A stretch of DNA of 63,733 bases, the filler included, from Nemertoderma westbladi (lineage: Eukaryota > Animalia > Xenacoelomorpha), in NCBI GenBank assembly GCA_032718475.1. It is 3 parts of 3 records of this genome, joined end to end, with 100 filler letters (N's around TTAATTAATTAA, not from the genome) between each part and the next. Parts side by side here need not be neighbours in the genome. Positions count along the whole stretch, not along the records: positions 28,339 to 48,830 come from JAUCBJ010004299.1; 2 more parts are not named here. One strand, written 5' to 3'. Positions 13,801 to 63,414 of the stretch are shown one piece after another. The stretch's first letter is position 1. Every line of letters starts with the position of its first letter. The position numbers and the translations under genes are program-made. Under the pieces are notes generated by a model that saw only the letters and a program-made list of their open reading frames with translations, was not told the DNA's origin and searched no databases.

Positions 13801-16400
13801 CAAGTTTATACAGGGGGGCCAGCCTACGACATCGTGAGGCAATACCAAGGAATTGAAGGAGGATTTACAACCGCGTGGAGAGCCCTTGAACAGGAAATTT
13901 GGCCATCCTGCGAAGATTATCCGACAAACCTTAAGGGGAAGGGGAATAACATCAGGCGGACTCGCAGATAACCCTGTTAGCATCAAGACCTTCACTAACA
14001 AAGTAGAAAAGGCGCTGATAATCTTAAAGACCCTAGGCCTAGATGCACCATATTAACTCAATGCATCGAATAATATCACGACCATAGCGCAGGCACTTCT
14101 GATTTGGTTGAGGAACAAATGGAGAAAGATCGCTTTCTCCACTCGAGAGAAGAAGGGTGCAGAGCCAGGGTTGGAGGAGATGTTGAACTTCCTTAACTAC
14201 GAGGCGGATTTGATAACGGATCCAGTCTATAGTGGGGACAGTCTAGGCAAAGTACCGAAAACGGAATACAGCCGACCTAAACCCGAACATAGTGCGGCGA
14301 ATGCACTTCCAAAAGTGAGGCAGTTGCTACCATATGCGGCCACACAGGGGACTACAAGTCCGCAGAGTGCTGGGAGTAGAGCCACATCGTGGCAGGGACA
14401 GAAACAAAGCAACAAGACCAGTAGATATAAACCCAATACCCCCAGTAGGCCGAGTTCAAACAACCAAAACACCAAACTGCTAGATATGCATCTAAATGCA
14501 ATATGCGAAGCACTATATAAGGAATGCTACAACCCTGATTACAAATGCCGATTGCATAGGAGCGGGACATATAAGACCATAAACTGTAAGCATTGGCAGA
14601 TTAAACAAGACCAAATAGCCTCCACTGGAAAGAATGGCCCATGTCACCGATGCGCGGTAGGAGGGCACAGAAAGGATGAATGTCAAGAACCACCGATCAA
14701 GTATGCCAAGACTGATGGAACTGGAGGCCAGATGATGGCGACGAGCACCATGGGAGCAAGGTATTACTCGGAGTAGTACCAGTGAGAATAATTGGAGAAA
14801 GCGGACTATCGGTTGCAACATTAATGTTAGTCGATAGCGGAACAGCGTTCATGCTGACGGAGAGTTGGGTGGCTGTGAAGATAGGATTAAAGACCAGGCC
14901 AAGTAATATGGCGGTGACCATGATATCGAGCAAAGACGAGGTCATGAAGATGAGGATGGTACGGTGTGAAATTGGAGCAATAACACCAGGGTGCGACTAT
15001 GGGGCTACAATTGAACCCATTCAAATAATAGAGTCGATAAACATAAACGCCAGGCGACCTACAAAGATCGAGTCAAACAAAACCGGTACCTGGACGGCAT
15101 CGACTTCTCTGTGCCCAAACTAGATGTCCCGAAAGTGTCTCTCATAGTCGGCATGGACTGTCCGATGGCCCATGAGAGGTTGCAAACCATCTTCAGAGAC
15201 GACAAAGAGCGAGACCCGGTGGCCATTCTCACGTCATTCGGATGGATGCTCAGTGGCCCAATAAAGACGAGGATCCTGTTTAGCGTATCCGAATCCTCTG
15301 GATGCATGCTGTCCGGTACCTTTGAAGACATAGAGCAAAAGCAAAAGACGGGTGATGGGGAGGTTCCATATTGGAAGCGGCCCGAGCAGAAGTCAAAGAC
15401 GGGCGATGGGGGAGGTCCCATATGAGAAGCGGCCCGGGGAAGGATATCAGGAATCGGGGGCAGGAATGGATCTGGAACCACGCATAGTGGAAAGGGTGGA
15501 GGATGAGTCCAGAGAAATACCACCAATAGAAGAGTCAGGAGGAGGAGCAACAGCAAGAGAGTGGGCGGAGGAGAATGGGTTCAATGCACAGGACCTTGAG
15601 GCAATGGGATGGAACACAGACGTTCCTGGCAAGTATCAGTACGGGGATGGGAAAGAGTTGATGGCGAGATATCCAGAGAGATGCCCGGAAGAGACGCCGA
15701 TCCAATTGGGAAGTATACTGATACTAGGGGGATTGAACAAGAAGATAAGGATAAAGAAGAAGAAACATAACAGGGTTGATCCAAAGGGAGAGGATTTGAG
15801 GATAAAGGATGATGGGAATGGGAAAGTTAGAGGAGACGTGTTGAACACGGGACTGGCAGAGTGCGAGGGGGCATTAAATGTTAAACCATTTTGCGTACCG
15901 AATGATGACCAAGGGTCATCGGGGGCTTTAACGCCGGCACACATATTGAGGGGGAGGCCAGCAGAGGTGGAATGTACCAGTGACGATGATATGAAGGGGG
16001 GCATTCTACCGCCAAATGACTACAAGATGAAGGGTGGCATTCTGCCACCAAAAGACGATGACAAATTCTGTGAAATAGCGGGAAGGTCGGACCTGAGACA
16101 GGAGAAGAGGATGGGGGGGGGGGGGGGCAGTGACGGGCCAGATGTGATGTCAGTGGGCCAGAAGTGGATATGAATCCTACTGATGAAAAGACAACCAAGG
16201 GTAGCATTTGACTACAAAGGGAGGAATTTTATAAAGAAATGGCAAGTCTCCAGGATGAAGATGTCTATGACAGCAGGGGGCATTCTACTACTGAATGCTA
16301 CCCCAGCGAGGATGGAAAGATTAGATCCGTGGAAGTGAGGATCGGAGGAAAGATAGGGGCCAAAGATAGGAAGACCTACAGGAGGGCAGCGCCCTAATTA
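10836..16400 (+). pseudogene. Degraded BEL/Pao gag-protease with integrase C-terminal remnant
   Basis: Gag core (FGHPAKIIRQTL, LRNKWRKIAF..LEEMLNFLNYEA), knuckles (CRLHRSGTYKTINC, CHRCAVGGHRKDEC), protease (MLVDSGTAF, LIVGMDCP, TSFGWMLSGP), then ECEGALNVKP..ALTPAHILRGRP and ECYPSEDGKIRSVEVR. Many stops and frameshifts. Confidence 0.85.
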
Positions 16401-21666: not shown

Positions 21667-22827
21667 TTACTCTTGTAGACCAGGATTGGTAACTTTACCC
21701 AAGAAGAGCAGAATATCGTTCCTTTTGTCTCTAATAGCAAAAAGAAAGGGCCGAGAGAGACAGATAGACGGGTTCCCGCAGGAGTCACTTTCGTATACAG
21801 CAGTAACTGCGGCAGCCTCAGACCCTTCCTCGTTAACTAACACAAAGGTTTTGTGTACAATGCCTTCGACAGACAGGCCGGCACTGTTGGTCACTCCCGA
21901 TAGATCGCATATCTCCGAAAACAGATCCGTCATCCCCATATCCGACAGCGTTTCAGTCAAAGTGTAAGAATCTTCAAGTTTAAACTTCGGGATGAAAACA
22001 GTCACCTCGATCTCCTCTAACTTTTCGAACACATTATCGAACCATTTGTTGCTAATTTTGGCCTCGAGAGCGGCGATTTCGTCATATGGCAATATAAATA
22101 TCATCGAGAGATCATTTCCTTTGTAGGGTATCTCCAATACCGTGAAGTCGTTATTACGAACTACGTTAAAGCGCCTATCTAACATTCTCATATACATCAC
22201 ATCGACTTCTCCTTCCTTGTCAGTAATGAATTTATCTTGAAAGCTTTTCTTGGGATCGAATTTGTTTTCCCAATCACCCTTGAAGTACAAGGCGTTTACA
22301 AGAACCAATTTGGTATCACCATCGATACATCTCTCACCAACTATTTCCTGTATTTTATCTCTCGTCATGGATGCCACCCAATTATTTATCTCGATTCGAA
22401 CTTCCTCAGGGAACCTCACAAAGTCGACTTTCTCTACCTCAGAACCGTACTGCTCTTTGGTTAGCTGTAGATATTCATCTTTGATCGGATAATCCTGTCG
22501 CACGTATAGCTTATTAGCTCCATCGAGAGTGTAAGGCTTTTCATCTCTATAAAGATAGTTTTGTATTGCCTGAATAGCGTTGTGTATTTCGTCATCTTTT
22601 AGGTCTTTGTAATGGAGAACTTTTCTCATCTGTTGTTTAGTTGCCCCTGCAGTGCCACCATATGTCATGGATAGCGCCGTTATCAGACTCAATGGACTGA
22701 TCAGAATGTTGGTATCGGATTTATCCTTTATTATCTCCTTGTACAGATCGATAGCAAAGCTGGTGATCGATCGACTAAGGGCTTCCACATTCGCTTCGAG
22801 ATCGACTAATTCTTTAACGCATTCCAT
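21667..22827 (-). CDS. Serpin (protease inhibitor), intronless, no signal peptide, 386 aa
   Basis: NILISPLSL, EINNWVASMTRDKI, LVNALYFKGDW, IPKFKLE, hinge NEEGSEAAAVT, C-terminal RPFLFAIRD..LFLGKVTNP. Confidence 0.97.
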   Translation of the reverse strand: MECVKELVDLEANVEALSRSITSFAIDLYKEIIKDKSDTNILISPLSLITALSMTYGGTAGATKQQMRKVLHYKDLKDDEIHNAIQAIQNYLYRDEKPYTLDGANKLYVRQDYPIKDEYLQLTKEQYGSEVEKVDFVRFPEEVRIEINNWVASMTRDKIQEIVGERCIDGDTKLVLVNALYFKGDWENKFDPKKSFQDKFITDKEGEVDVMYMRMLDRRFNVVRNNDFTVLEIPYKGNDLSMIFILPYDEIAALEAKISNKWFDNVFEKLEEIEVTVFIPKFKLEDSYTLTETLSDMGMTDLFSEICDLSGVTNSAGLSVEGIVHKTFVLVNEEGSEAAAVTAVYESDSCGNPSICLSRPFLFAIRDKRNDILLFLGKVTNPGLQE

Positions 22828-23149
22828 TGTAAGCGGTGATTAAAATAATTTGGTTATTCTCTAATTTTATTATTTGTACTTTATTTTAATTACTTTATTG
22901 TTATCGAAACTTTTAGGTAGTGTTTTAGACACGAAAAGGAATTAGGGAAGTAATGAATGGAGATTCGGGTCTCCCTAAGACCCGGTCCTGTCCCTGTCCC
23001 CGGTCCCCAAGACACCTAAAACCCGGTCCGCCGGTCCCAATGAAAGTCTACGTGGAATTCATCCAGAAAAAAGGACCGGGGAAATCCCGGTCGGTGCTGA
23101 CCCCTAAGAGTCGACCCCTTAAAAGCCGGCCCATGCTTGGATGAAAAAA

Positions 23150-25208
23150 TATTCGAGCACCGAATGCAGACTGGACAGACTGATGAGGTTCTGATTAAGG
23201 ACATGGAGGGCGGTTGGCGACTCGCCCTCGCATCACCAGATGATAGTGGCAATGGTGGAATTGGTCTATTGATGAATCCAACTGCACATGCAGCATTGGA
23301 CAAAATAGACCAAATCTCTAACCGCATCATCCGTTGCAACTTCTCATGTTCTGGAAGACTGGCTAAGACGTTTCCTAAGGTGGTTCTGATTGTGTGCTAC
23401 TCTCCAACTAGTGTTGCCCCTGTAGAGGAGGTGGAAAATTTCCACCACAATCTTCAAGCAGCTACTGATGGAGTGGATCAGGATGCATTCTTAACATTCC
23501 TGGTAGATTTTAATGCAAGTCTGCATCATTCACCTACATCGCCCTGGGTCTATAGCAATAGTGTTAACCGAAATTCCGTCCATCTTCAGGATTTTATCTC
23601 TGGAAATGGATTGTTTTCGGCTGGAACCCAGTTCAAGAAGCGAACTGGAAAGCTATGGACTCATAGTGGACCCAGTGGTCACAATTCCCAGATAGACCAT
23701 ATTCTGTTTCGTAGGAAATACAGGAGCTCTATGAAAGACTGTAATGCATTTACACTTCGACCCTTCTCCAGTGATCACCGCCTTATTGTGGCCAAGGTAA
23801 AACTTAGTCTGCGTGGTAGCAGAACAACAAAATCTGCCTTGCCGCGGCATGACTGGTCCTCTCTGTTGCAACAGCCAAGTGTGAGATCCACCTTCACACT
23901 ATAGCTGAGCAACAGGTATGAGGTTCTTGCCTCTGAGGCGGCAGATCACTGCGAGGGCTATACTGCCTTCACAGAAGCAGTTTGTGTCTACTGTTGACGG
24001 TGACACAGAACCATTTGAAGTGTTATGCCTCCAGGAAGACACACTTGCACCATTCTTGTTCATAATTGTGGTTGACTATGTTCTGCGCATGTCCTTAGAT
24101 CATCATTATGATGATTGGGTGATGGTAACTCAACCTACTGGCTCCAAAAGTCGTAGAAATCATGCCAAGTACCTAACTAATCCAGACTTTGCTGATGACT
24201 TGGGAGTACTCTTGGAGTCACTAGAGGGAGCCCAACTAGTGTTGGACTTTTTGTTAACTCCAAAAAGACCAAAACTTTTACAGTTAACTTTAAAAGTTCT
24301 CAGCAAGTCTCTGTCCGGATGAGCAAAACCTCAAAGGATGGTGTGCTTTAGCATGTGAACGACTTCTGTTACCTGAGATCATGGATCCGGAAGTCAGATG
24401 TGGACCTTCGGATACGCAAGGGAAAGGCATGGGCAGCATTGAATGGGCTTTCCAAGATTTAGAAGTCACACAGAATTCATCGGAAACTTAAGGTCCAATT
24501 ATTTAGAGCAGTAGTTCCAGTACTCCTCTATGTAAGTCCTTGCTGGGCTCTAACTGCTGAGGACAACAAATCTTTGGATGGCACATTCACATGAATGCTA
24601 CGTCGGGTTTACTGTGTCAAGTACAATGCAAACATCTCCAACCAGACACTATATAACATTGGAGGTATCTCATTGGTTCTCCCAAGCTTGACACTAGAAC
24701 AAAATCGCCTCCGCTTTGCAGGACATTGTTTTCGCCGTGAGGACCAGCCTGTGCACAATCTTGTGCTTCTGCACCCCCCATGGCGATAAGCATGGTGGAC
24801 AGCCCATGACTTTCTTGAGACGCATCTTAAAGGACACTGGCCTTGAAGATGCGGATGATCTAGCAAATGTCATGGGTGATAGGGAGTTGTGGCGGCGCAA
24901 TTTTATGTTCTTGCACCCCCCATGGCGATAAGCACGGTCGACAGCCCATGACGTTTGTGAGATGCCTCTTAAAGGACACTTGCCTTGAAGATGCGGATAG
25001 TTTTGCGAAAGTCATGGGGGATAGGGAGTTTGTGGCGTTGCAACTGTGTTGACAAGCCGGCATAGCATTATTAATGCACGCTGCATTGGGCTTGCCAATT
25101 GTGGATTGAATGGTAGTGACAAAATGTTTTTGTCAAGCTGGCATAGCATTTCAATGTGCAGTTTCAATGCAGCAGGCCGATTATAGTAGTAGTAGTAGTT
25201 TTAGTAGT
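23150..25208 (+). mobile_element. RTE-clade non-LTR retrotransposon, internally deleted and degraded
   Basis: APE (EHR, GGIGLL, CYSPT, DFNA, QIDHIL, SDHRL), jump near 23975 to RT (QEDTLAPFLF, DFADDL), duplicated 3' segment and (tag)n tail; homologous to 37796-38424 and 59405-61105. Confidence 0.9.
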
Positions 25209-25576
25209 GTCGTTTCATCAAGATTCTCCAAGAATAGCTCAAGATCGGAATCGACAGTACCAGTTATAGCAATAGTATAAGCAGCTAGCTCTCCACCCAG
25301 TTTGGATTTTCAGTTTGTTTAGTTAACATCAGTGATGTTGGGAGTCCGTCTATAACTAGAGCAACCAAAAAAAAAAGAGCTTCCCATTTCCATTTGTATT
25401 TGCCATCCTTTTAAGTTTAACAGCCACAACACTCCCGGGATCTTCAGCAAGGATTTGATAACGATTATATCAGAAAATGGAAAGTCACAGCAGTTATGGT
25501 CATCCAGTGCTTTGGCACAGACATACACAGACATTTGGAAAACGACCCCAGAATAATTATAACCGTTCGATAATGG

Positions 25577-25644
25577 CTTGCAGTTCTGCCTCTCCCCAGA
25601 AGTTAAAGTGTTCTTTAACTTCTGGGGAGAGGCAGAACTGCAAG
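25577..25644. repeat. Perfect 32-bp inverted repeat with a 4-nt loop
   Basis: cttgcagttctgcctctccccagaagttaaag-tgtt-ctttaacttctggggagaggcagaactgcaag. Confidence 0.97.
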
Positions 25645-25875
25645 TTGTTACAAGTTATTTCACTTTCACCAAACACTTTGTTACAAGTTATTTCACTTTC
25701 ACCAAACACTTTGTTACAAGTTATTTCACTTTCACCAAACACTTTGTTACAAGTTATTTCACTTTCACCAAACACTTTGTTACAAGTTATTTCACTTTCA
25801 CCAAACACTTTGTTACAAGTTATTTCACTTTCACCAAACACTTTGTTACAAGTTATTTCACTTTCACCAAACACT
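25645..25875. repeat. 33-bp minisatellite, 7 units
   Basis: ttgttacaagttatttcactttcaccaaacact repeated exactly. Confidence 0.97.
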
Positions 25876-26701: not shown

Positions 26702-27699
26702 TATCAAAATATCAAATGCGCCTGCATACTGAACTCTGGCCGATAATATTGACCATTTCTTATATTTGTATGTTTTGTTCACGATTCACGAACATTTTCG
26801 CTATTATATACCAAATTTCTAGAATGTTCTACACAGAAAAAATTATGGAACATTTTTGTATACCAGTAAACATGTTCTAGAACAACAATTTAAAAATAAC
26901 AAAAACTAGCTTGCTAATATATTAATTTTGAACTATTTTAAAAAATGTAATATAATTATAAAAATAATAGTTAACATATTGACGAACATACTGTACTATA
27001 GCTATTATAAAAAAATACCTTATATTAGGTAATTTCCTACATTAGGTAAAAGAAATAGTTAATAATACACTCTGTTATTAATAGTAACCAAGACAGCGTG
27101 AGCAATAAATAAATAGGTGGATTACTTACGGCTCATCCATAGACGAGCGCAATCCAGAAAATTAACAATAAAATATATTTATTAAATACTTAACTTAAAA
27201 TATATTTATTCAAAAATTTTAACATTACTCAATACTCAACGCCGATAGTATTAACAGCGAGTTGTTATTTAGAACTTTACAATTTTAGATGACATTAAAG
27301 CATTGTATTGTATTTGGTGTTATTGTTTACGTGGTAACCCATGACGCCGTTAAGTAATGTCCACTAATGCGACATTACTTAACGCCGTCATTGGATACCA
27401 CGTAAATAATAGGTGGAAATACGCCTGACAGCCAGATATGCCTACTGCATTACCTGCCGGTAGGCGGGGTATAGCTATTAATAACCAGTTGGACCTAGCT
27501 ATATTATTATAATAACATGGTTCCAAACGCCACCATAAATATAAGCTAACTTATTTATAACATAATTTATGTCATTTTTACATTTATTTATACAGCAACT
27601 AATATAATTTGTGTAGTTTCTATCACTTATAAATGTATGTACACCAATAAAGGAGATATACAAATGTACATAATGTAAAATAATGCCGCCGTAAAATGC

Positions 27700-31951: not shown

Positions 31952-34030
31952 ACGTTATATATGTATGTAGGTATGTATATTTATATGTTTGTTTATATCT
32001 ATAAACCACCAATTGTCTTGAAACCATGTATTGAAAAATTGTAAACGCAATTATTTATCAATTGTTATCTACAGTAGTTGTTGAATAAAAAAATGTTGGT
32101 TACGGTTCGATGTACGATATTATAAATATTTGAAAATTATCAACATTATTGAACGCGAAATTAAATACCCACAACTACACTTTGAGCAGCCCATTAATAG
32201 AGTCAATGTAAAACCAGAACTACTGTACAATCACAACAGATGACCAACTTCACTAATAATTGTCAATTAGAGTTACGTAGGGCCTACATTAACTAATGTT
32301 CTATCAGTATTCAGTCAGTTAGAGTAGGCCCTACTGTTAAGCAGTATGTAGGCCTACATCATTTATATATCGTCTCTAAACCTGGGTCCAGAAAATTGAA
32401 CCAGGGTGAATGTATAAGGTAGAAATATAATAACTCTTCTTTATTTTATTTATCTAATACAGTAAGACCCCTTCGCAGGATAAACTGCTCTTTGGGGCCG
32501 TTTCCTAGGTTGCGGAGCTGATGGGGATAACATTTCACACATCGCACTAATTGTGATTGTGATTTTTTTGCTTAGGCCATTTTGTATTACTAGACATTAA
32601 GACAGTTGGTTTGGTTGATGCAAGTCATTCTGTTTTTTGGAGGCTGTGGAAGACAGGTTCATTTAAAGCCCTCTAGATGGCGTTCTAGTACACTGTACAT
32701 TGGGTCGTATTCAAAATTACTGTGTCTGGCATAATATGCATCAGAAATCCAAAAAATTTTGTCAAGACGCTACCCATAGAAACAGAGGGCTTTTTACACC
32801 TATCGAACTCCAGAGTAGCATTAAAAACATGTCCAACCATAAAGCGAATAGGTTAGATTAAATCCCTTCCGAGGTACGGAAAACAGGAGCTCTGAACCGA
32901 CCATTATTGGTTGTTTGCAGCAGGATGTTGAAAGGGGAAAAGCTACTGTTTCAATTTGGACTAAAAGTCAACTAAAACCCACCCCGTACGCTATTTATCT
33001 AGGGTTGGGGGGGGGGGGGGGGGGGGGGGGCTCCGCCCTCCACTCGTAGGGGCTGATGACAAAGATTAGCATGGCGGCTTTGCTCTGGTTGTGTGGGGAG
33101 GGGGGGGGGGGTGTACCTTTCTTAGATATAATTTAGATATTTAATATTTAAATAATAGATATTTAATATTTAAATAATAGATATTTCTTAGATCATAAAT
33201 ATCTCTACTCTCTTTTGAGTTCACAAATACAGTATATCCACCATGTTAGGCGTATGATATGGAAAATATATATAGTATATTTAATTTTATAGATTTCATA
33301 GATAAAAATTTGTAATTACATATTTATTGATAATAAGTTATATTAGTTATAATATGCATTAATCTGAATCGATTAATGATCTGAAGAGAGTTGTAAATAT
33401 TTTTAAGATCATTGCAGATCGATGCAGATATTTATGGCGCACTATAATTCTTAGAGTAGATCATAGGCCTACTGTAAGATCTAAATAAATTTAATTTTTT
33501 ATATACTTTATATTAAGATTGTTAAGATCAGACTATGATCATTGTCGATTTTAATTGACAAACATCTTAGAAGGGATACAGTATATACGGTAGTTCTGCA
33601 GTGAGGATTGTGGAAATCCAAAGATGGTAGATTATTGGGAATGTACAGATTCAGATACAGTACTAGCGCTGTGGAGGGAGATTGATTGAAGGAATTCAAT
33701 CAAAGAACCTTCCTGTTCTGATATTTGTGAACTTCAAGTGCTGCAAAATAGAGCAGCAAAATCCGGCAAATTCTACGACCTTTCGGTAAATTTTTAAATT
33801 AACATAGGGTCTAATGAATTACCGTACTAATAATGTACTAGGTCAGAGTCTGGCCACTCAGCTATTGCTGCATTGACCAATCTACCAATGCTGACCCTGA
33901 TAGTACTGCAGTATTCTGGTATTCTCAGAATTAGCAGACCAGAGTATCAATCAACCTTAATTCAGTAATTGTTAATACTGCAGTAGGCCTACTGCTATAG
34001 TAATAATATACCGGTAATAATTTCTTAATT

Positions 34031-34241
34031 ATGAGTTCCGGTCGAAAACAAACTCCTAGTGACTTCCTGAAGCAAATAGTCGGTCGCCCTGTCGTCGTTA
34101 AATTGAACTCAGGATCTGACTACCGCGGTGTATTGGCCTGTCTTGATGGCTATATGAATGTGGTTTTGGAGCAAACCGAAGAATATTTAAATGGGCAGCT
34201 GAAAAAGAAATATGGCGATGCGTTTATTCGCGGAAATAATG
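34031..34241 (+). CDS. LSM6: U6 snRNA-associated Sm-like protein LSm6, main coding exon (intron starts 34242)
   Basis: RKQTPSDFLKQIVGRPVVVKLNSG..YRGVLACLDGYMN..LEQTEEY.NGQLK.KYGDAFIRGNN matches LSm6; similarity ends at G|GTAAGT, a canonical donor. The final VLYIS exon was not found. Confidence 0.95.
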
Positions 34242-35750
34242 GTAAGTTAATGTTGCTCAGTTGCTACTGTTGTGTGGTAGTGCCGGTACGGCGGCACCGT
34301 ATTGAAGCTGTGAACAGGTGAAGTTGGAAATCTGTGACATAAATCAGCAATTGTGCAAGATGACAGAATGAGCAAAGTATTTAGCGTAACTGATGAACTG
34401 TCAACTACCGTTGCCGTTAGCTGACTGCAGGACTGGGGTGCGGTGCGGCTGTTTAAGTACCAGTACCGGTTAAGTCTAAGTCGGTTTAAAACCACGGGTC
34501 GGCGGTCGGGGTTAACTCTTAACTGTAAAAAGACGATACCGGTAGATATAGAAAAACACTGCTGCACTGGACTAATATTTTTCGATTTTTTTACTTTCAG
34601 TTTTGTATATAAGCACACAAAGGCGAAGAACTTAATGAAGGCTATAAGAATTTTGAAGATTAATTTCAAACCTAAAGTCGTTTCTGCTGGCGAGCTATAA
34701 TAATCTATATAAACCATGAGAACTGGAACTACCGGCAACCGTGAATATTGAACAAATGTTGAATATATTTATACTGATATATTCGAGTTTACTGACTGCT
34801 TCCAGTGGTATAGGTATTACTGATTAGACTGAAATTAGCATTATAAGTTTCGGTCTGTTATAGTTCATAACGTGAACCATAACTTTGCAATATTACATTC
34901 TATACTACACGTGATAATTAATTTTTCGTTGTTGAAATGTTGAGGATAGCTATTAGAATGCTATATAATTATTATAGTTGCTATAATATTATTACACCAT
35001 GTCCCGTAATATAGTGTCATTTTTTGATGACACGGACCCCCCCCCCCCCCCAGATTTTTCTACAAATCTTTATCATATTGTTTGAAATTTGAAACACAAC
35101 TAGTTCCACTCACCGTGGTTGTTACCATGAAGCCGGAATTTTCGATTTTGCCTGTAAATTTTTTTTATAAGTGTTTTAAAAACGTGTCTTTTCCGAAATC
35201 GCACCATCCGTGTCGTGGCCATTCTTCACATTAGTCGTAATTTTTTCATATTATTAGAAAGCTTGCCTTGCAAGGATTCCAAATATGTAACAATTTCTGA
35301 AATTCGTTGACGGAAATACGGAGCCCCTGATATGCCAGGAGAAAAAAAACGTCAAATATTTCGCGTTCCCTCGCGTAAGATTTCCCGTTTCCTCGCGTAA
35401 GATATTAGAAATTAAGACATAATTAAATATTACCCTTAAAAATAACCAAGTAAAGGTTATATGAATGCTAGACTTGGAAGTGATGGGGAAGAGGTACAGA
35501 TTAACACATTGATAGTAACAATGTGTTGGCAAGCTGTATTCTTCGAGGTGTTTGTTATTATATATTTATTATAGGAAGGAATCTAGGGGTCTTAACCTCG
35601 AATGATAAGTTTATTTTACCGAAAATAACTTATCTTTTATTGGTGCAATTGTAGGACTAATCCCATCACATGCGTACTTTTTAACCGGGTAGTGTACAAA
35701 TTTAGGAATCACGCAATTTTTCTTGAAATTAATATCTCATATCTCTCCAA

Positions 35751-35793
35751 ACCACGTACGCGTTTCGACCTTACTGGGTCTCATCAGCGTGGT
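35751..35793 (-). ncRNA. Minimal type I hammerhead ribozyme
   Basis: Minus strand ACCACG-CUGAUGA-GACC(CAGUAA)GGUC-GAAA-CGC-GUA^CGUGGU: stem I ACCACG/CGUGGU, full catalytic core, 4-bp stem II, minimal palindromic stem III, GUA cleavage triplet. Confidence 0.9.
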
Positions 35794-35856
35794 GTCGGAT
35801 TCGAACCTGGGACCTCGAGGTGGAAGCCGAGACTACAACCACTAGGACTCAGGTTC
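35790..35856 (-). ncRNA. tRNA-Gly(TCC)-like Pol III head (SINE-type, probably not a functional tRNA)
   Basis: A box-like (A)GTCCTAGTGG, anticodon-like arm CTCGG-CTTCCAC-CTCGAG, B box GGTTCGAATCC, ends in CCA; acceptor stem does not pair. Confidence 0.7.
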
Positions 35857-35984
35857 TTGAGACATGGAGTATTAATTTCAAAACCAGCTGCCATTTTATA
35901 TTATATTATAATATAATATATTAACATATTGAAAATGTTATAGAATTTATTGACAATACTATTCGCTCCGGCTTTGGTAGCATG

Positions 35985-36850
35985 GATACAGAATGATGCA
36001 CGCCAATTGCGTGAAAGAAGGCTTTGAAAAAAAAAAGGAGGGTGTGCGCACCATATTGCAGTACCTGGATCCAACTGGTGTGGAAATTCGAACCTCCAAA
36101 CGATTGAAACGACGACTATAATTTGCCAAAGGGCCAAATTATTTTTGGCATCTAGATGGATACGATAAACTGAAACCATTTGGTATGCATAAGTGGGTGC
36201 ATCGATGGTTTATCAAGAAAGATTATCTGGTTGAACGTTTACCGAAATGATAATGATTCTAAGTTAATTGCTGGCTATTTTTTGGAGGCTATTATTTCGT
36301 TAAAGGGGTGTCCTATGATTGTACGAGGTGATATGGGAACCGAAAATGCACGAGTCGTAACGATACGCGATATTTGTGGCGCGAGTACGGCTAACCAGCC
36401 CGTTGAATTGTTTTTGGCGATGCTAAGACGGGGCTGCACCGAATATTGGATTGTGTTTTTCACAACCTGCAGGATACGGGATTGTTCAACGTCAGTTATC
36501 TACACAAAAGTGTGGTGCAGTTTTGTTTTACCTTTCTAATTCAAACTGAACTATATAGGTTTGCTAAAGCATGGCAATGACACTTGATAAGATCGATAAG
36601 ACCAAATGTGCCCTCTGGTAGACCGGATGTGATGCATGAGGCGCTACAATTATGGGGTGCTACCGAGCAGAGCCAGTTCACAACAAAAGAAGATATCCAT
36701 AATTCGACAGAGGAAGTGATATTCCGGACAACATCAGGCTATTGTGATAATGATATTTACAATTTTGGCTGAAAACGATTTTCAGCTGCCAAATTCCCCT
36801 TCCAGCGCTCAGAATTTGTATACTTTTTAGTCACCAGCATTGAGGAGGCA
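35985..36850 (+). mobile_element. IS3EU-type DDE transposase fragment (pseudogene)
   Basis: LDPTGVE.R..RLKRR..KGPNYFWHLDGYDKLKPFG..ISGCIDGLSRKIIWL..CPMIVRGDMGTEN..GASTANQPVE..YW, with frameshifts. Confidence 0.75.
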
Positions 36851-37795: not shown

Positions 37796-38424
37796 CTACT
37801 ACTACTACTACTACTAGGATCGGCATGCTGCATTGCAGCTGCATTTTTAAGAATGCTGTGCCGGCTTATCGACAAAATTGCACCGCCACAACTCCCTATC
37901 ACCCATGACATTTGCTAGATCATCCGCATCAGTGTCCTTTAAGATGCGTCTCAAGAAAGTCATGGGCTGTCCACCATGTTTATTCACTCCATGAGGCTGC
38001 CAAAGTGGCAGCACTGGCTGGTCCTCACGGCGAAGGCAATGTCCTGCAAAGCGGAGGCGATTTTGTTCTAGTGTCAAGCTTGGGGGAACCAATGAGACAC
38101 CTCCAATGTTATATAGTGTCTGGTTGGAGATGTGTGCATTGTACTTGACACAATGAACCCGGTGTAGCATTCTTGTGAATGTGCCATCCAGAGATTTGGT
38201 GTCCTCAGCAGTTAGAGCCCAGCATGGACTCCCGTAGAGGAGTACTGGAACTACTGCTGCTCTAAATAATCGGACCTTAAGTTTCCGATTAATTCTCGGT
38301 GACTTCAAAATCCTGGAAAGCCTATTCAAGGCTGCCCATGCCTTTCCCTTACGTATTCGAAGGTCCTCACCTGACTTCCGGATCCATGATCCCAGGTAAC
38401 AGAAGTCATCCACATGCTCAAGTA
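37796..38424 (-). mobile_element. 5'-truncated RTE LINE
   Basis: VDDFCYLGSW..WAALNRL..VLLYGS..RLRFAGHC; (tag)n tail; 9-bp TSD TGCACGGTA (37787-37795, 38425-38433). Confidence 0.92.
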
Positions 38425-38518
38425 TGCACGGTAATTCAGTCTTCTGAAGCACGGCCTACTTGCCAGTAACTTTGTATAAGGAGAGTTGACATTATAAGAA
38501 TCGTTCTAGCTAAAACAA

Positions 38519-40327: not shown

Positions 40328-43300
40328 TTAACTAGGGCGATTCTTCCAACAGGCACTCTCCCACTGCTGCTCTTGTAGGTCCTGTAGGATTCGCCGCACT
40401 CTCATCGCCAATTCCATCTCACCAGGAATTGGTTCTCCCTCTTCTGCCACCCTGAAATCGGGTCTCTCCGCCGCCTTCTTAACTAGCTCATCTCCTGGCA
40501 TCAAAATGCCACCTCTCTCCTTGTTGTCTCCCGCCGGCAGAATGAATAGAAAGTGAAAGAACAGGCAGAACAGAAGGTAGAATAATAGTCCTATCCCTTT
40601 CCATCCTGCCTTCCTTCTCGACTTCCCCCTTGTCGGTATGCCTCCAAACCGGACCTGCGTCTCTTCCGGACACTCCTCTGGACACTCCCCCGGAGTGTTG
40701 TCCTCCGGACACCTCGCCGTCCGCTCCGCTCCATCTCCATACCGATGCTTGCTGGGAAACCTACTCTCCTCTGCCCACTTTCTTACCGTCACCTCCCTAT
40801 TTGGCTCTACTATCTCTTGTATCTCCTCTACTTCCTCTGCGTCTTCGATGCCTGGTATCATGCACCCAGATGTCTCTGTCACACTGCATGGGATGTTGGT
40901 TTTAACTGGGCCGCTAAGCGTCCATCCGAACGGCGTGAGGATCGCCGTCGGGTCCCGCTGCCTGTCTTCGCCGAAGACCGTCTTCGTTCTCTCGTGGGCC
41001 GTCGGGCAGTCCATCCCTACTATAATGGACACCTTCCTAACGTCCACCTTTGGTATTGAGAAATCGATACCGTCCAGGAATCTATATTGCTCGACCTCAA
41101 TGTTGGTTGGTCGCCTGGCGTTGATGTTTATCGATTTGATGATGTGGATGGGGTCGATCGTCGCCCCATAGTCGCATCCCGGTGCAATCGCTGCTATCCT
41201 GCACCGCCCCGTCCTCGTCTCCAGGACCTCATCTTTACTCGAGACGGTAGTTACCGCCATTCTGTTCGGCCTCGTCTTTAGCCCTATCTCTTCGGCCACC
41301 CAGTTCTCCACCAGCGTGAAGGCTGCTCCGCTGTCGACCAGCATTAATGTCGTTACTGATCGACCGCCCTCTCCTGATATCTTTACTGGTACTACCCCGA
41401 GTAGTACTTTTCTCTTCTTCTCCTCTTCTATAGTGCTTGTGGCCATTGCCTGGCCTCCAGTCTCGGACTCTCTGACTGCTGTTTCTCTACACTCTCCGTA
41501 TCTGTGTCCCTCTACCACACATCGATGACATAGTCCGTTTGCGTCTGTGTAGGCTATACGATCTTGTTTGGGCAACGCTTGCCAGTGCTTACAACTCCTG
41601 GTCTTATGTGTTCCGTCCCGATGTAATTGACATTCGAATCCTGGATTATAGCGTTCCCTGTATAGTCCCTCACGTATCGCGCGTAGGTTTATATGTACCG
41701 ATTTAGTGTTTTGGTTGTCTGTATTCGGCCTACTGGGTACATTGGGATTATGTTTATTTATGGTGTTATTTTCTTTCTGTCCCTGCCACGGTGTGGCCCT
41801 ACTCCCAGCTAACTGTGGACTAGCAGTCCCCTGTGTGGCCGCATGTGGTAGTGATTGTCCTACTCTCGGGAATGGATCTGCAGGATCGTGTTCGGGTTTA
41901 TGGCTTGTCCCCAAACTGTCCTCGCTATAGACTGGGTCTGTTATTAATTCGGCTTCATAGTTGAGGAAGCTCGACATCTCTTCTAAGCCCGGTTCCGCAC
42001 CCTTCTTTTCCCGTGTGGAGAAAGCGATTTTCCTCCACTTCCTTCGTAACCAGACCGGCAGTGCCTGCGCTATCGTGGTGATGTTGTTAGACGCGTTGAG
42101 TTCGTATGGTGCGTCTAGCGTCTTTAACACGATTAACGCCTTCTCGACCTTGTTTGCAAAGGTCCTTATGCTAACAGGATTGTCCTGTAGGCCATCCGAT
42201 GTTATGCCTCTCAGGGTTTGCCGGATGATCTTGGCCGGGTGCCCGTATTCCCTATCTAGCACCCGCCATGCTGTCGTGAAGCCGCCCTCGATGCCCTGGT
42301 ATTGCCTCACGATGTCGTATGCTGGGCCTCCTGTATATACTTGCAGATATTTTAGGCACTCCGCCTGCGTCAAGTTCTTACTTAATATTTCGTTACTACC
42401 CAGTGAAAAGTGCGCAAGCGTATCGCAAGCGTGCAACGCAGGCGTATCTCATGTGATTCCCAAGAGTTATGGCCCGACCTTTACGCAAGCGACCTACTTG
42501 CGTTAAGCCGCATAGATATCGCAACAACTTGCGTTAAGTCACATAAATATCGCAACAACTTGCGTCCAGTCACATAAAACACACATGCGATTCACTTGCG
42601 ACTTTCAAGCGTGATGACGCATAAATATCACAAAAATCTACCGGTTGTGATTTTTGTGTAATATATTGAGACCTTTGTGACAGAAAATATGATACAGTAG
42701 TTGATTATTCCACTACTGTTTGATACTATGGGCTTCCATATCATCTGCCTACTGTACTTACAGTACCTTACATTACATTACATTACAATCTCTAGACATA
42801 GAATATTAGACATACGGTATGAATCAATACTAGAAATGGTTGTTAATATACAGGATAATACAAATAGATTAGAATAACCATGACACATTTTTAACTATTC
42901 CCTATAATTTTCAATTCTATAAAATATATTAATATAATCACTGAATTCGACAGCCATATTAGATAATTCATATTCATCAATTTTATATTTTAAAACTATT
43001 TATTTATTGATAGGCAACTTTATTTTAATTAATAATCTTGAGTGTAATTAAAACCATGCGATTCACATGGGAATTAACGCATGATATTCTCATTGTGTAA
43101 AACATGCGTAAAATAAGTGTTAAATGAGGTGTGATTCGCATGCGATTTTCATGCACGGAATCACATGCGTAAAATAAGTTGTGAATCGCATGCGTGGAAT
43201 CGCTTCCCTATTTTACATGTGAATCACATGCGAATCACAAGAGTTTTATCGCTATTTATTGACCCGCAATTAAAACGCATGTCGCATTAAAATCACTTGC

Positions 43301-46979: not shown

Positions 46980-48157
46980 AACAACGTACCAGTGCAGTAG
47001 AGTAACTTAGTTCTTTCAACATTTTTTTTTACTTAATTATTACTAAGTGTTAGTAGTAGTTTGTTGTATGTTGAATTCTGAGCTGAAATGTTTAGGTTGG
47101 GTTATCTGTCAATTTTGACATACATCGATACATGTTCACAATTTTCATCATAGAATTAATGTAGAAGTAAATTACCTTATATTCCACCCTGAAATTGTTT
47201 GTTTGGCAAATTGGCATCCTACTGAATGTACTAGTCTGGCTGTCTTCGCCTTGCGTTCATAAATAAAATAATAATACAATGAGTCGGCCTACACAGTACA
47301 TATACAGTACAAATTATTTGCATCGTTTGCAGTGGCTCAATGTATTTTTCCAGTTTCCGCAATGACTTCAACTAGCCAAGCCTGCACAACCGGCAGAAAG
47401 CAGACATCAGCCATTCGTTTATTCTACAAGAGGGAGAGTTGACGTTTTTGTTGTCATTATGTAAAATGATGATGATCAACAGTGTGAGTTTCAGTCAAAG
47501 TGTGCCAACGGTCCAAGTAATTTAAAAGAACATTTAGAGCGGCGTCACCCAATACTATACGAAAAATTTAAATCGGCCGAGAAAGACATATTAAGTATAA
47601 AAGAAGCAGGGGCAATAAAAAAAATCCAAGCTTCAAGCTCAAACTGGTTCTTTAGATGATTATTTAACAACCGTAAAGAAGGCACAAGTTTCAACTGGAG
47701 AAGGAGAATCTCTCGTGCCCATGTAGTTTCCAAATCAACAAAAACTGGTTTTGATATAGGCCTAAGTGACATATCTTTTGTTTTTTTATTCCCTGGGGGG
47801 GGGGGGGGGGGGGGCAATATTGTAATTTATGTTTACATTTATTTTCAATTTATTACTTCCAGTTTTCAATTTTCAGGAATTTTTATTACAGTTCTAGTTC
47901 CAGTTCCAGTATTTCAATATATCACGTTTCAGTTCTAGTTTCAGTTCAGTTGTAAAAAAATTTAAGTTTCAGTTCCAGTTCAGAAGAAATGCCAAAAACA
48001 ATTTCAGTTCGATTTCAGTTCCAGTTCAGTTTCAGTTCGCACCACTACCACCAACATCAAAGTATGAATTCGGTCTTGGTAGCATTTATATGCAATCCAA
48101 CCTTTTTATGATAAAAAAAACAATAATTAAGTGGGGGGGGGGGGGGGGGGGGATGTA

Positions 48158-48305
48158 GGACAATTCAGTCCCGGACGATTCGGTCCGGACAATTCGGTGA
48201 CGGACAATTCGGTCCCAACACACTAAATAAATGGGACCGAATTGTCCGGGACCGAATTGTCCTAGGAACGAATTTTCCTAGTACCGAATTGTCCGGGACC
48301 GAATA
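48158..48305. repeat. Short MITE-like element with about 15-bp subterminal repeats in inverted orientation
   Basis: ggacaattcggtcc(c) repeats followed by gggaccgaattgtcc repeats; another copy begins just before the gap at about 48814. Confidence 0.6.
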
Positions 48306-49487: not shown

Positions 49488-49661
49488 TTGGTGGGTTCTA
49501 CCCTTATTATGTTTATGTAACATTTAAATGCAGGTGGCGGGAAATTCAAAATGTATTCTAGCTTAGGATAAGTACGACTAATATACTACGGGATTACCGA
49601 TATACAGGATAAACTTAATTTACCTTTTTGCATGATCTAACTATATTATTAAGATCACAGC

Positions 49662-52600
49662 AGCAACCCGAAGGCTCCTCTCTACCGGAAGCAACCCGAA
49701 GGCTCCTCTCTACTGGAAGCAACCCGAAGGCTCCTCTCTACCGGAGGAAGCAACCCGAAGGCTCCTCTCTACCGGAAGCAACCCGAAGGCTCCTCTCTAC
49801 CGGAAGCAACACGAAGGCTCCTCTCTACCGGAAGCAACCCGAAGGCTCCTCTCTACCGGAAGCAACCCGAAGGCTCCTCTCCACTGGAAGTAACCCAAAG
49901 GCTCCTCTCTACCGGAAGCAACACGAAGGCTCCTCTCTACCGGAAGCAACACGAAGGCTCCTCTCTACCGGAAGCAACCCAAAGGCTCCTCTCTACCGGA
50001 AGCAACACGAAGGCTCCTCTCTACCGGAAGTAACCCAAAGGCTCCTCTCTACCGGAAGCAACACGAAGGCTCCTCTCTACCGGAAGCAACACGAAGGCTC
50101 CTCTCTACCGGAAGCAACCCAAAGGCTCCTCTCTACCGGAAGCAACACGAAGGCTCCTCTCTACCGGAAGCAACCCAAAGGCTCCTCTCTACTGGAAGCA
50201 ACCCGAAGGCTCCTCTCTACCGGAAGCAATCCAAAGGCTCCTCTCTACCGGAAGCAACCCGAAGGCTCCTCTCTGCCGGAAGCAACACGAAGGCTCCTCT
50301 CTACCGGAAGCAACCCGAAGGCTCCTCTCTACCGGAAGCAACCCGAAGGCTCCTCTCTACCGGAAGCAACCCAAAGGCTCCTCTCTACCGGAAGCAACAC
50401 GAAGGCTCCTCTCTACCGGAAGCAACCCAAAGGCTCCTCTCTACTGGAAGCAACCCGAAGGCTCCTCTCTACCGGAAGCAACCCAAAGGCTCCTCTCTAC
50501 CAGAAGCAACCCGAAGGCTCCTCTCTACCGGAAGCAACACGAAGGCTCCTCTCTACCGGAAGCAACCCGAAGGCTCCTCTCTACCGGAAGCAACCCAAAG
50601 GCTCCTCTCTACCGGAAGCAACACGAAGGCTCCTCTCTACCGGAAGCAACCCGAAGGCTCCTCTCTACCGGAAGCAACCCGAAGGCTCCTCTCTACCGGA
50701 AGCAACACGAAGGCTCCTCTCTACCGGAAGCAACCCGAAGGCTCCTCTCTACCGGAATCAACCCGAAGGCTCCTCTCTACCGGAAGCAACCCGAAGGCTC
50801 CTCTCTACTGGAAGCAACCCGAAGGCTCCTCTCTACCGGAAGCAACCCGAAGGCTCCTCTCTACCGGAAGCAACCCGAAGGCTCCTCTCTACCGGAAGCA
50901 ACCCGAAGGCTCCTCTCTACCGGAAGCAACCCGAAGGCTCCTCTCTACCGGAAGCAACCCAAAGGCTCCTCTCTACTAGAAGCAACCCGAAGGCTCCTCT
51001 CTACCGGAAGCAACCCGAAGGCTCCTCTCTACCGGAAGCAACCCGAAGGCTCCTCTCTACCGGAAGCAACCCGAAGGCTCCTCTCTACCGGAAGCAACCC
51101 GAAGGCTCCTCTCTACCGGAAGCAACCCGAAGGCTCCTCTCTACCGGAAGCAACCCGAAGGCTCCTCTCTACCGGAAGCAACCCGAAGGCTCCTCTCTAC
51201 TGGAAGCAACCCGAAGGCTCCACTCCACCGGAAGCAACCCGAAGGCTCCTCTCTACCGGAAGCAACCCGAAGGCTCCTCTCTACCGGAAGCAACCCGAAG
51301 GCTCCTCTCTACCGGAAGCAACCCGAAGGCTCCTCTCTACCGGAAGCAACCCGAAGGCTCCTCTCTACTGGAAGCAACCCGAAGGCTCCTCTCTACCGGA
51401 AGCAACCCGAAGGCTCCTCTCTACTGGAAGCAACCCGAAGGCTCCACTCCACCGGAAGCAACCCGAAGGCTCCTCTCTACTGGAAACAACACGAAGGCTC
51501 CTCTCTACCGGAAGCAACCCGAAGGCTCCTCTCTACCAGAAGCAACCCGAAGGCTCCTCTCTACCGGAAGCAACCCGAAGGCTCCTCTCTACTGGAAACA
51601 ACACGAAGGCTCCTCTCTACTGGAAGCAACCCGAAGGCTCCTCTCTACTGGAAGCAACACAAAGGCTCCACTCCACCGGAAGCAACCCGAAGGCTCCTCT
51701 CTACCGGAAGCAACCCGAAGGCTCCTGTCTACCGGAAGCAACCCGAAGGCTCCACTCCACCGGAAGCAACCCGAAGGCTCCTCTCTACTGGAAACAACAC
51801 GAAGGCTCCTCTCTACTGGAAGCAACCCGAAGGCTCCACTCCACCAGAAGCAACCTGAAGGCTCCTCTCTACCGGAGGAAGCAACCCGAAGGCTCTTCTC
51901 TACTGGAAGCAACACAAAGGCTCCACTCCACCGGAAGCAACCCGAAGGCTCCTCTCTACCGGAAGCAACCCGAAGGCTCCTCTCTACTGGAAGCAACCCG
52001 AAGGCTCCTCTCTACTGGAAGCAACACAAAGGCTCCACTCCACCGGAAGCAACCCGAAGGCTCCTCTCTACCGGAAGCAACCCGAAGGCTCCTCTCTACT
52101 GGAAACAACACGAAGGCTCCTCTCTACCGGAAGCAACCCGAAGGCTCCACTCCACCAGAAGCAACCTGAAGGCTCCTCTCTACCGGAGGAAGCAACCCGA
52201 AGGCTCTTCTCTACTGGAAGCAACACAAAGGCTCCACTCCACCGGAAGCAACCTGAAGGCTCCTCTCTACCGGAAGCAACCCGAAGGCTCCTCTCTACTG
52301 GAAGCAACCCGAAGGCTCCTCTCTACTGGAAGCAACACAAAGGCTCCACTCCACCGGAAGCAACCCGAAGGCTCCTCTCTACCGGAAGCAACCCGAAGGC
52401 TCCTCTCTACCGGAAGCAACCCGAAGGCTCCTCTCTACCGGAAGCAACCCGAAGGCTCCTCTCTACTGGAAGCAACCCGAAGGCTCCACTCCACCGGAAG
52501 CAACCCGAAGGCTCCTCTCTACTGGAAACAACACGAAGGCTCCTCTCTACTGGAAGCAACACAAAGGCTCCTCTCTACCGGAAGCAACCCGAAGGCTCCT

Positions 52601-56862: not shown

Positions 56863-56964
56863 TGTAAAATTTAATACTGTACACCATGAACTGTACTAAA
56901 TATATTTGTGGCGGAAAATTTGAATTGTAAATTGTCTTATTGCTTCCCTAAACCGTACCACTAT

Positions 56965-61730: not shown

Positions 61731-62988
61731 TGAGCCCCAGACGGAGTCCCAATTGGTGTGTTGCGGAATAGTCAGTCCACTTGTTCTTAGCTCTCTGTTG
61801 GGTTGGCAGTGGTATGGTTTACAGAACCTTGGCTTAACAAATCACGTTGTTGCCTTTGACAGCGTCTTTGTCTGGCCTTAAATTCCTCCTCACGTTCGTA
61901 TTTGGACAGATCGCGGTCTATATAATAGCGCTCTCCATTTTTTACAATGATTTCATCGCAAGTATGGTGTTCGCATTTTCAATAGACCCGAAGGACAGTA
62001 GCAGGGGTCGTGCTGAACCATCCTTTCTGTGTTTACCCAGCCGGCGTAAGTTAAGACATTGTGTGATTTCACCAATCGAATCTCGAATGGATTTCTCGTC
62101 TATTTCACGTTGTTATCTTTGTGAGTTAGCAGCATTGTCCCCAGGAAGTCGTATGATGACAACATTGCGTTTCCGTAAGTCGTTCTCATGAATTGCCCTT
62201 TCTATTGTAATGTAAGTGCTGGGATTTCCTGTTGTTAGTGGCAGAGTGGGTTGTTGTGTCATCTTTTGCAGTTCCATTACGGCCTTTGAATTTTTGCGAA
62301 CAACTTCAATCCAAGTAGACGAATTTTTGTCATTGGTTGGTTCATTATCATCCAATGTATCCAATGGGTTTGCTATCCAATCCAATGAGTTTCCAGTTTT
62401 GTGAAAATATCAGATTGAATTGTTTCTATTTCGTCTAGCTGTACCTCAATTTCGCTACGTAGTGAGGATAAGTCCTCCTCTCTTTGGGACGCTACGTTGT
62501 GTACATCATGTTTGGTTGAATCACTTGTTTGCTGAAGGTCGAGGTTCTCCTTTTCAAGATTAGCAATTTTTACCGCGGAACAGAAACCACAAGCAAACTT
62601 TACTTTCCCAATAGAGTGAGTTAGTGACTCTGTAGGAACTTCTATCTCCTCAGTCCATGTTGACTTACAGAATGAACATTTCACACTTGTTTTTGTCCAG
62701 TTCTTCGTTTTTGATTGGCGTCGGTTTGCAGCCACAATCTTCATTGGATTGCCACCTGATTGTCTTCGTTGATCGCCTGTTGGAGGTGCCATTAATTGTT
62801 AGTTTAACCCCGTAATGTTGCAATGGGTGAGTTCTCAGTGTCCCAAATCCAGTAATATATAATATATCAATAAAATGCAATTAGTGGTTTGGTCAAATTG
62901 TATTACACAAACAGTCTGATATAACTATTGTTTACCCAATTTCGAAATCTACTGAAAGGCGGTAGTTTCCCTCTGTCTCATTTCTATC

Positions 62989-63414
62989 ATACATTTATTA
63001 TAGGAAGGGATCTAGGGGTCTTTACCTCGAATGATAAGTTTATTTTACCGAAAATAACTTTTCTTTTATTGGCGCAATTGTAGGACTAATCCCATCACAT
63101 GCATACTTTTTAACCGGGTAGTGTACAAATTTAGGAATCGCGTAATTTTTCTTGAAATTAATATCTCATATCTCTCCAAACCACGTACGCGTTTCGACCT
63201 TACTGGGTCTCATCAGCGTGGTGTCGGATTTGAACCTGGGACCTCGAGGTGGAAGCCGAGACTACAACCACTAGGCCACAGGTTCATTAGATATGGAGTA
63301 TTAATTTCAAAGCCAGCTGCAATTTTATTAGGCCCTGATTTTTTGATTATTGATAGTAATAATGTGTTGGCAAGCTGTATTTTTCGAGGTGTTTGTTATT
63401 ATACATTTATTATA
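62989..63414 (-). mobile_element. tRNA-headed hammerhead retrozyme/SINE-like repeat, copy 2 (412-bp monomer + 14-bp terminal redundancy)
   Basis: Homologous to 35508-35899; atacatttattata at both ends; A box TGGCCTAGTGG and B box GGTTCAAATCC on the minus strand. Confidence 0.8.
63180..63222 (-). ncRNA. Minimal type I hammerhead ribozyme
   Basis: Identical to 35751-35793. Confidence 0.9.

Follow-up and report, generated by a model that had tools for sequence, protein, structure and literature searches.

A circularly permuted repeat of Nemertoderma westbladi that joins tRNA-derived A and B boxes to a dimer-type hammerhead motif

Results

The locus and its repeat unit

The window analysed here, i.e. 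the whole 63,733-nucleotide stretch of Nemertoderma westbladi DNA (assembly GCA_032718475.1, three parts joined end to end), contains two copies of a short repeat, copy A and copy B (Table 1), in the company of coding frames and other repetitive sequences. An LSM-domain frame (34007-34318, plus strand) lies approximately 1.2 kb from copy A on the opposite strand, and an integrase-core (rva_4) fragment (36174-36536, plus strand) is found just past the 5' flank of that copy. Elsewhere the window holds an intact-looking Copia-type LTR retrotransposon frame of 1361 amino acids (4649-8737, minus strand) together with near-identical 248-bp repeats at 4353-4600 and 8887-9133; a single-frame serpin gene (21667-22839, minus strand) for which no relative above 41% identity occurs among the best 120 matches; three related copies of a LINE-like family, present as pieces with endonuclease and reverse transcriptase matches (23101-25088, 37798-38455, 58774-61107); and a DUF1759/protease gag-like frame (40328-42448) with related pieces at 13774-15308 and 63540-63732. 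Tandem arrays occupy 49658-56381 (28-bp unit x 239), 57169-58220 (53-bp unit x 20), 609-1145 and 61333-61744 (the last two with 30-bp units). Near-perfect short palindromes occur at 25565-25653, 27321-27411, 56952-57011 and 48156-48294; the miRNA-family matches of these four were at chance level, below gathering scores.

Table 1. Features of the repeat in the window (all on the minus strand).
Feature	Position	Remarks
Copy A	35508..35899	~392 nt, slightly under one 411-412-nt unit; circularly permuted; 10/344 compared positions differ from majority
Copy B	62985..63414	full 412-nt unit plus 18-nt terminal repeat, other permutation; 7/344 positions differ from majority
tRNA-derived segment (copy A)	35797..35856	tRNA positions 1-62 only, 3' acceptor arm missing; putative Pol III start near 35856
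A box (copy A)	35839..35849	damaged in copy A; consensus in copy B and in majority letters
Anticodon-like loop (copy A)	35820..35826	TCC in copy A; TTC in two sediment-run relatives
B box (copy A)	35797..35807	consensus match; last three bases also in hammerhead stem I extension
Type I hammerhead with extended stem I (copy A)	35746..35799	core 35751-35793; predicted cut 35757/35756; from Rfam and folding
ACGCGU, self-complementary, in place of stem III (copy A)	35758..35763	predicted pairing between two ribozyme copies
Enclosing stem, 5' arm (copy A)	35859..35883	24-25 bp predicted by folding
Enclosing stem, 3' arm (copy A)	35721..35745	fold prediction
Possible Pol III terminator (copy A)	35622..35625	T4 preceded by TA; only four-T run on the unit's ribozyme strand
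A+C-rich segment	35508..35573	70-77% A+C in two measured windows; at the 3' end in copy A and at the 5' end in copy B
A box (copy B)	63268..63278	
B box (copy B)	63226..63236	
Hammerhead (copy B)	63180..63222	

Positions 35556-35899 match 62985-63328 at 327 of 344 positions (95%), and positions 35508-35573 match 63349-63414 at 63 of 66, the order of this second block being swapped relative to the first. Copies A and B are accordingly circular permutations of one 411-412-nt unit, of which copy A is approximately 20 nt short. The unit is non-coding, with a GC content of 38% and no Pfam match in frames overlapping either copy; at 412 nt, with a single type I hammerhead motif, it has the properties of a non-LTR retrozyme (non-coding, approximately 150-450 bp, GC below 50%, one type I hammerhead). 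When folded as a circle it reaches a z score of -3.2, with none of 100 shuffles folding as well, as against -2.0 for the opposite strand, and in both copies a predicted stem of 24-25 bp encloses the tRNA-derived hairpin and the hammerhead.

The best candidate for a target duplication at copy A is a 7-nt match situated 20 nt from the end, with none adjacent, and at copy B, where the far flank was compared, nothing above 6 nt was found; the 5' end of copy A sits in an AT-rich run, and neither window copy carries a simple-repeat tail. Both are solo copies: two hammerheads in tandem were seen on no record, and no listed piece spans the unit and a second ribozyme. Copy A is likely a dead solo copy. 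A scan of 56 frames in the window gave no GIY-YIG match, and no frame combining reverse transcriptase and GIY-YIG adjoins either copy, so that neither is part of a recognisable autonomous Penelope-like element.

The tRNA-derived segment

A sequence-only reading of this DNA had described a tRNA-Gly-like Pol III head fused directly to a hammerhead ribozyme. Its placing of an A box and a B box upstream of the ribozyme is borne out, as judged against the A-box and B-box consensus strings: in the majority letters of the family both boxes are consensus, and the A box of copy A departs through two private changes (35849 and 35847). The box geometry of copy A, 11 nt before CTAG and 26 nt from box to box, is the commonest among 102 distinct real tRNAs, which were themselves fetched by a pattern built on the two boxes. 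Over tRNA positions 1-62 the identity to real tRNAs reaches approximately 72% in 60-65 columns, a value inflated by the choice of the comparison set (128 mostly archaeal and phage tRNAs, most of them picked by the same boxes); with this box-picked set the identity is above the 60% over 60 nt that marks a tRNA-derived SINE.

The likeness ends at the B box. In 101 of the 102 real tRNAs the three bases that follow it (CGG or TGG) complete the T stem, where the repeat has GAC, and the mean identity to tRNA positions 63-72 is 0.28 (n = 117). The 'ACCA' of the terminal GACACCA is therefore hammerhead stem I and not a tRNA end; the sequence-only reading was right that it opens stem I, and only the tRNA 3' end that the string might suggest is lost. 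Eukaryotic tRNA genes do not encode CCA.

The segment is no functional tRNA gene, a possibility rejected for want of a cloverleaf (1 of 7 acceptor pairs, 1-2 of 4 D-stem pairs and 2 of 5 T-stem pairs are present) and of any call, since ARAGORN finds 0 tRNA genes and the Rfam tRNA model has no match to the segment at E<=10. It is predicted instead to form one long hairpin in which positions 1-7 pair with positions 50-56. Nor is the glycine label established: in a comparison with prokaryotic and phage tRNAs, Gly(TCC) and Ala(CGC) are level as best isotype, 25 of 500 shuffles score equally, and two relatives read TTC in the anticodon-like loop. The term 'head' likewise has to be given up, the segment being internal to the unit and approximately 45 nt inside copy A, with sequencing depth steady at the tRNA start.

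The hammerhead motif

The complete minus-strand hammerhead core and cut site claimed earlier are confirmed as a motif by stems, core and Rfam match. In copy A, stem I (ACCACG/CGUGGU) comprises 6 bp, one bulged C and then 5 bp, and is followed through the core by CUGAUGA, a 4-bp stem II (GACC/GGUC) with loop CAGUAA, GAAA and ACGCGU, cleavage being predicted after GUA. CUGANGA, GAAA, NUH and stems I and II, which together define a type I hammerhead, are thus all present. Of the model search that had been suggested as a check, the hammerhead half gave weak Hammerhead_HH9 matches to both copies (26.6 and 27.2 bits, below the gathering score of 52; E 7.3e-5 in a search of a 211-nt stretch), and the tRNA half gave none. 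A pattern combining B box and core has two matches in the window and none in any of 100 shuffles; a loose core-only pattern has 6 matches, all within copies A and B, against 5.8 expected. Since the latter is no rarer than chance, the case for the hammerhead rests on the stems and boxes.

An intramolecular stem III does not form, as closing the A-U around CGCG costs 5.2 kcal/mol; between two ribozyme copies, however, the palindrome is predicted to give a 6-bp helix. The cofold minimum of two copies is a double hammerhead (-42.7 kcal/mol, versus -33.6 kcal/mol for two monomers), a prediction in keeping with the dimer action that the sequence-only reading had allowed for. Hammerheads with a short palindromic helix III are reported to cut as dimers (PMC4209133; PMC7229834), and the reduced stem III, as modelled, corresponds to this known dimer-type variant.

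Alignment of the copies also confirms that the ribozyme of copy B is identical over 43 nt to that of copy A. Given 17 differences in 344 nt, such identity has a chance probability of P=0.097, and the two-copy identity alone is weak, non-significant evidence of conservation. The proposal that the ribozyme is conserved beyond its flanks is not significant on the two copies alone and gains from sediment run X7, where a relative keeps the ribozyme region over a diverged body.

Relatives in a sediment run

The X7 sample is small, consisting of three contigs that are likely from other organisms and account for a small share of words. In the first contig, 2 of 80 letters differ over the region of B box and hammerhead (63163-63242) and 3 of 28 at the unit junction, and the 162 letters between these two regions do not align at 80%. 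The second and third contigs cover 63213-63308 with 15-16 other letters in 96, 3-4 differences in each being without a listed position. Between the boxes the listed changes fall at 8 of 31 positions, the B-box consensus is spared, the A box changes only at degenerate positions, and 4-5 of 21 hairpin pairs are broken. Small as the sample is, these contigs are better evidence of conservation than the identity of the two window ribozymes. Elsewhere, a scan for the B-box-plus-core pattern in animal-poor collections returned 3 viral and 14 metagenome loci, none of which resembles the repeat by inspection.

Abundance, joints and ends

Reads and contigs were aligned to 62900-63395 only, in four of ten listed runs (X1, X3, X4 and X7). 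In X1 and X3, which come from two studies of organism A, 3370 and 1321 contigs aligned, respectively, numbers that are not a copy count; 2499 of the 3370 in X1 are at least 95% alike. Summed depth in X1 is approximately 5-8 x 10^5, compared with 17-44 for the single long contigs listed, which again is not a copy number. From these contigs, rather than from a count, the repeat has the many copies of a retrozyme family, and we infer genomic copies in the thousands as an order of magnitude. The copies lie only 2-3% from the majority letters, so that the family is young.

Both of the aligned DNA runs of organism A contain joints that lead from 63392-63395 back to 62985-62999. In X4, one 441-letter contig covers 62993-63395 and then 62985-63022, i.e. 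a closed loop of 411 with its first 30 letters repeated. The permuted copies, the joints and this loop together give the repeat a head-to-tail organisation. The closed contig has the nine majority letters found in organism A, and its run is labelled organism B and only guessed to be RNA; in two runs of that study the repeat words are all but absent. Stray DNA or RNA of organism A is the simplest reading, though the contig may represent a real circle, and it was used here for topology only; of the listed runs that carry the repeat none is recorded as RNA, X4 being perhaps DNA as well.

Summed depth in X1 is steady across the tRNA start (505,067 at 63286 and 523,772 at 63275). Among the best 14 of 427 rows of loose ends, the greatest support goes to ends before 63346, with 16 and 18 contigs at an agreement of 0.41, and to ends before 62985-62998; none of these rows lies at the cut site or the tRNA start. 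Those before 63346 run into unrelated flanks. The hot spots are 3' ends on the ribozyme strand, copies A and B end at or within 3 nt of them, and the hot spot at 63346 follows the A+C-rich segment (70-77% A+C). The steady depth, the ends and the absence of an adjacent duplication would be easier to explain if priming took place within a circular or multimeric RNA than if it took place at the terminus of a linear SINE RNA. A dip in depth at 63325-63345 was considered as a breakpoint and rejected, since copy B differs there from the majority by two substitutions and an indel.

Hammerheads beside tRNAs in other DNA

The pattern scans brought to light an observation of a separate kind. Two metagenome tRNA clusters, L006 (424-553, plus strand) and L008 (1224-1085, minus strand), and a viral contig, L162 (tRNA-His at 181-254, oriented on the match), each contain a type I hammerhead whose stem I is 5 bp long. 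In all three the predicted cut falls exactly one base before a tRNA-His gene and leaves the -1 base characteristic of tRNA-His, which is U in L006 and G in the other two. The hammerhead core of L006 and L008 is also preceded, at a distance of 2 nt, by the end of another tRNA. L162 is the only independent case, being 1 of 95 viral loci retrieved with a pattern built on L006 and L008. These models suggest that the 5' ends of some tRNA-His may be ribozyme-made, a subject on which nothing was found by title in the literature searched. In eight further viral or metagenome loci (L001, L003, L007, L009, L011, L017, L002 and L016) a complete-looking type I hammerhead, its stem I 5-6 bp long, directly follows a T-loop-like motif or a tRNA; the first six form one near-identical family, in whose scanned loci no tRNA was called.

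Discussion

A possible life cycle

The length of the unit, its permutation and joints, the two boxes and the hammerhead motif are established above; from there we lean, if not strongly, towards the reading that the repeat is a non-LTR retrozyme with its own tRNA-derived internal Pol III promoter. On this reading Pol III would start near tRNA position 1 of a tandem unit and read into the next unit; the two hammerheads, held together by their ACGCGU palindromes, would cut at each GUA, and the unit-length RNA set free would carry the promoter at its 3' terminus. Its ends would then be kept together by stem I and the 24-25-bp enclosing stem for a host ligase such as RtcB, which is reported to have ligated other retrozymes in vitro (PMC7229834), and a single circle, being devoid of stem III, would escape recutting. 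A reverse transcriptase supplied in trans, likely of Penelope type, would prime inside the RNA and copy it once or for several rounds into AT-rich DNA, yielding permuted solo copies such as A and B as well as new tandems in which the order of promoter before body is restored.

Mobilisation of Penelope type is suggested because of the type of ribozyme (PMC4209133), the reported origin of retrozymes from pLTRs (bioRxiv 10.64898/2026.07.22.740005) and the combination of internal priming with AC-rich and AT-rich sequence (PMC11167929, PMC8557442). The Penelope reverse transcriptase is described as starting internally in an AC-rich loop and nicking AT-rich DNA (PMC11167929).

The main obstacle to this cycle is the TA-T4 run, which lies 131 nt past the cut, is present in the majority letters and argues against read-through. 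In HeLa cells TTTT is reported to have stopped 65% of B2 transcripts, and approximately 95% in a tRNA gene, with 42% for TATTT (PMC8466645); at such rates many Pol III transcripts may end short of the second hammerhead. The lack of longer T runs in the unit gives no significant sign of selection against terminators, T5 being absent from 72% of 2000 shuffles. SINEBase cautions that A and B boxes indicate Pol III use and do not prove it (PMC3531059), and minimal Penelope hammerheads are reported to cut poorly in vitro, even as dimers (PMC4209133).

We advance more tentatively, and think doubtful as a whole, an extended version in which the unit is a self-contained circular-RNA cassette: a truncated-tRNA Pol III promoter with its B box within stem I would be coupled to an obligate-dimer hammerhead that cuts only once the polymerase has entered the next unit, such that only tandems fire and the resulting circle is protected, and the recurrence of this layout in diverged relatives would turn the Sm-alpha design into a class of retrozymes found repeatedly among invertebrates.

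Alternative explanations

The box evidence could be accepted and its function denied. In a retrozyme of this kind the tRNA-derived boxes would drive no unit-length RNA, Pol III being silent or stopped at T4, some other polymerase would read the tandems, and the segment would be kept for its hairpin. The T4 run in the majority letters is as this account expects, read-through is the default proposal for retrozymes in PMC7761336, and the seven hairpin pairs between tRNA positions 1-7 and 50-56 have no listed change in relatives. Against these points, the hairpin as a whole loses 4-5 of 21 pairs in two relatives, in both of which the box consensus is kept, and the box spacing is exactly tRNA-like; we regard silent boxes as unlikely, if a serious alternative. 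We give appreciably less credence to the idea that the unit is the pseudo-LTR of a coding Penelope-like element with a captured tRNA promoter, its copies being solo terminal repeats. A minimal palindromic stem III is indeed typical of Penelope ends (PMC4209133), and retrozymes are reported to derive from pLTRs (bioRxiv 10.64898/2026.07.22.740005). Yet the unit closes on itself at 411-412 nt, no reverse transcriptase or GIY-YIG frame adjoins either copy, the hot-spot loose ends among the best 14 of 427 rows consist of unit sequence or bear no relation to one another (agreement 0.41-0.44), and the fraction that runs on unlike is 0 in both X1 and X3.

Two further readings would dispense with a retrozyme altogether, and both seem to us very improbable. 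A DNA-level satellite or dispersed repeat, spread by recombination with no RNA step and bearing an inactive hammerhead-like motif, would account for an Rfam score below the gathering score, and head-to-tail joints fit it too; it sits poorly with a core, stems and palindrome that are all complete, with a ribozyme region that has hardly changed in a relative with a diverged body, and with the strand asymmetry of the loose ends (best 14 of 427 rows). The least probable account is that of a classical LINE-dependent SINE whose 5' tRNA head is by chance followed by a hammerhead. The repeat is short, high-copy and partly dispersed, with approximately 70% tRNA identity over 60-65 columns, albeit inflated by the box-picked set. 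Nevertheless, depth in X1 reveals no 5' boundary at the head, ribozyme cutting would remove such a head, no similarity links the repeat to the LINE pieces in the window, and the copies have no simple-repeat tail and no adjacent target duplication; above all they are permuted, by which this reading is already contradicted. Neither a 5'-terminal tRNA head nor an interspersed, non-tandem arrangement with a simple-repeat tail, as a SINE would show, is found. Of the 'self-cleaving SINE/retrozyme hybrid' proposed in the sequence-only reading, there remain the tRNA-type promoter, the dimer-type hammerhead, the likeness to Sm-alpha and retrozymes and the repeat family; the SINE half falls with the permuted, head-to-tail structure.

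Comparison with known systems

The likeness to Sm-alpha in combining Pol III boxes with a hammerhead, also pointed out from the sequence, stands up, the tRNA-derived A and B boxes lying directly 5' of the hammerhead as in an Sm-alpha-like element. The ribozyme of Sm-alpha is canonical and active as a monomer; the repeat is set apart from it, by description, through a stem III reduced to a 6-nt palindrome that is predicted to need a partner, and differs also in that its tRNA part stops at position 62 and its B box shares bases with stem I. In its overall plan the repeat resembles Sm-alpha and Sj-alpha of Schistosoma, a tRNA-derived promoter being followed by a type I hammerhead in a high-copy unit of a few hundred bases (PMC6765202, PMC2770079, PMC8490949). 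In Sm-alpha, cleavage is reported to leave the Pol III promoter at the 3' terminus of the monomer, so that tandems are needed (PMC6765202), the arrangement predicted here too, and the element has been tied to tRNA-Gln (PMC2770079); unlike Sm-alpha (335 bp for W36.2), the present unit measures 411-412 nt. The design is therefore already known from Schistosoma, and the repeat is a variant of it with a dimer-type ribozyme.

With metazoan non-LTR retrozymes as described in PMC7229834 the repeat shares its non-coding nature, a single type I hammerhead, a GC content below 50%, head-to-tail joints and a predicted self-paired circle, with no LTR or primer site seen, and its weak palindromic helix III is as reported there for amphibian retrozymes. 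At 411-412 nt it is slightly above the 170-400 nt of expressed retrozyme circles and inside the 150-450 bp of the repeats. By sequence it thus fits a metazoan non-LTR retrozyme, except that no locus with two ribozymes and no circles came to light, and unlike those described it carries a tRNA-derived promoter: 'Pol III' and 'SINE' are absent from the main text of PMC7229834, as are 'tRNA', 'Pol III' and 'promoter' from the accessible text of bioRxiv 10.64898/2026.07.22.740005. The literature searched, from which most subscription journals are missing, yielded no report of a tRNA-promoter retrozyme outside Schistosoma, which does not establish absence from print.

The hammerheads of Penelope pLTRs offer a third parallel, being likewise minimal type I with palindromic positions 15.2-16.2 (PMC4209133, PMC11167929, PMC8557442), and partial-tandem permuted insertions, an AT-rich context and an A+C-rich 3' end of copies are common to both; unlike Penelope-like elements, the repeat has no coding frame, and its helix II is of the canonical 4 bp rather than enlarged. 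Like tRNA-derived SINEs (PMC3531059) it is short, non-autonomous and abundant, with tRNA-type A and B boxes; unlike them it has an internal tRNA part, a permuted and tandem-joined unit, a ribozyme and no tail.

The transcription of animal retrozymes is an open matter, read-through by Pol I, II or III being the proposal offered (PMC7761336), and in a young and abundant family whose boxes are intact and whose ribozyme is predicted to be gated by dimerisation, the question of Pol III transcription becomes directly testable. The surprise is a moderate one, in that the design is known, copy A is likely dead and function is predicted from sequence. Nevertheless, were the preferred reading true, the repeat would provide a compact natural model for the production of RNA circles from a Pol III promoter; were the cassette reading true as well, it would answer, for this class of retrozyme, which polymerase makes the circles. 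In either event the promoter-plus-hammerhead design of Sm-alpha would extend beyond the blood flukes.
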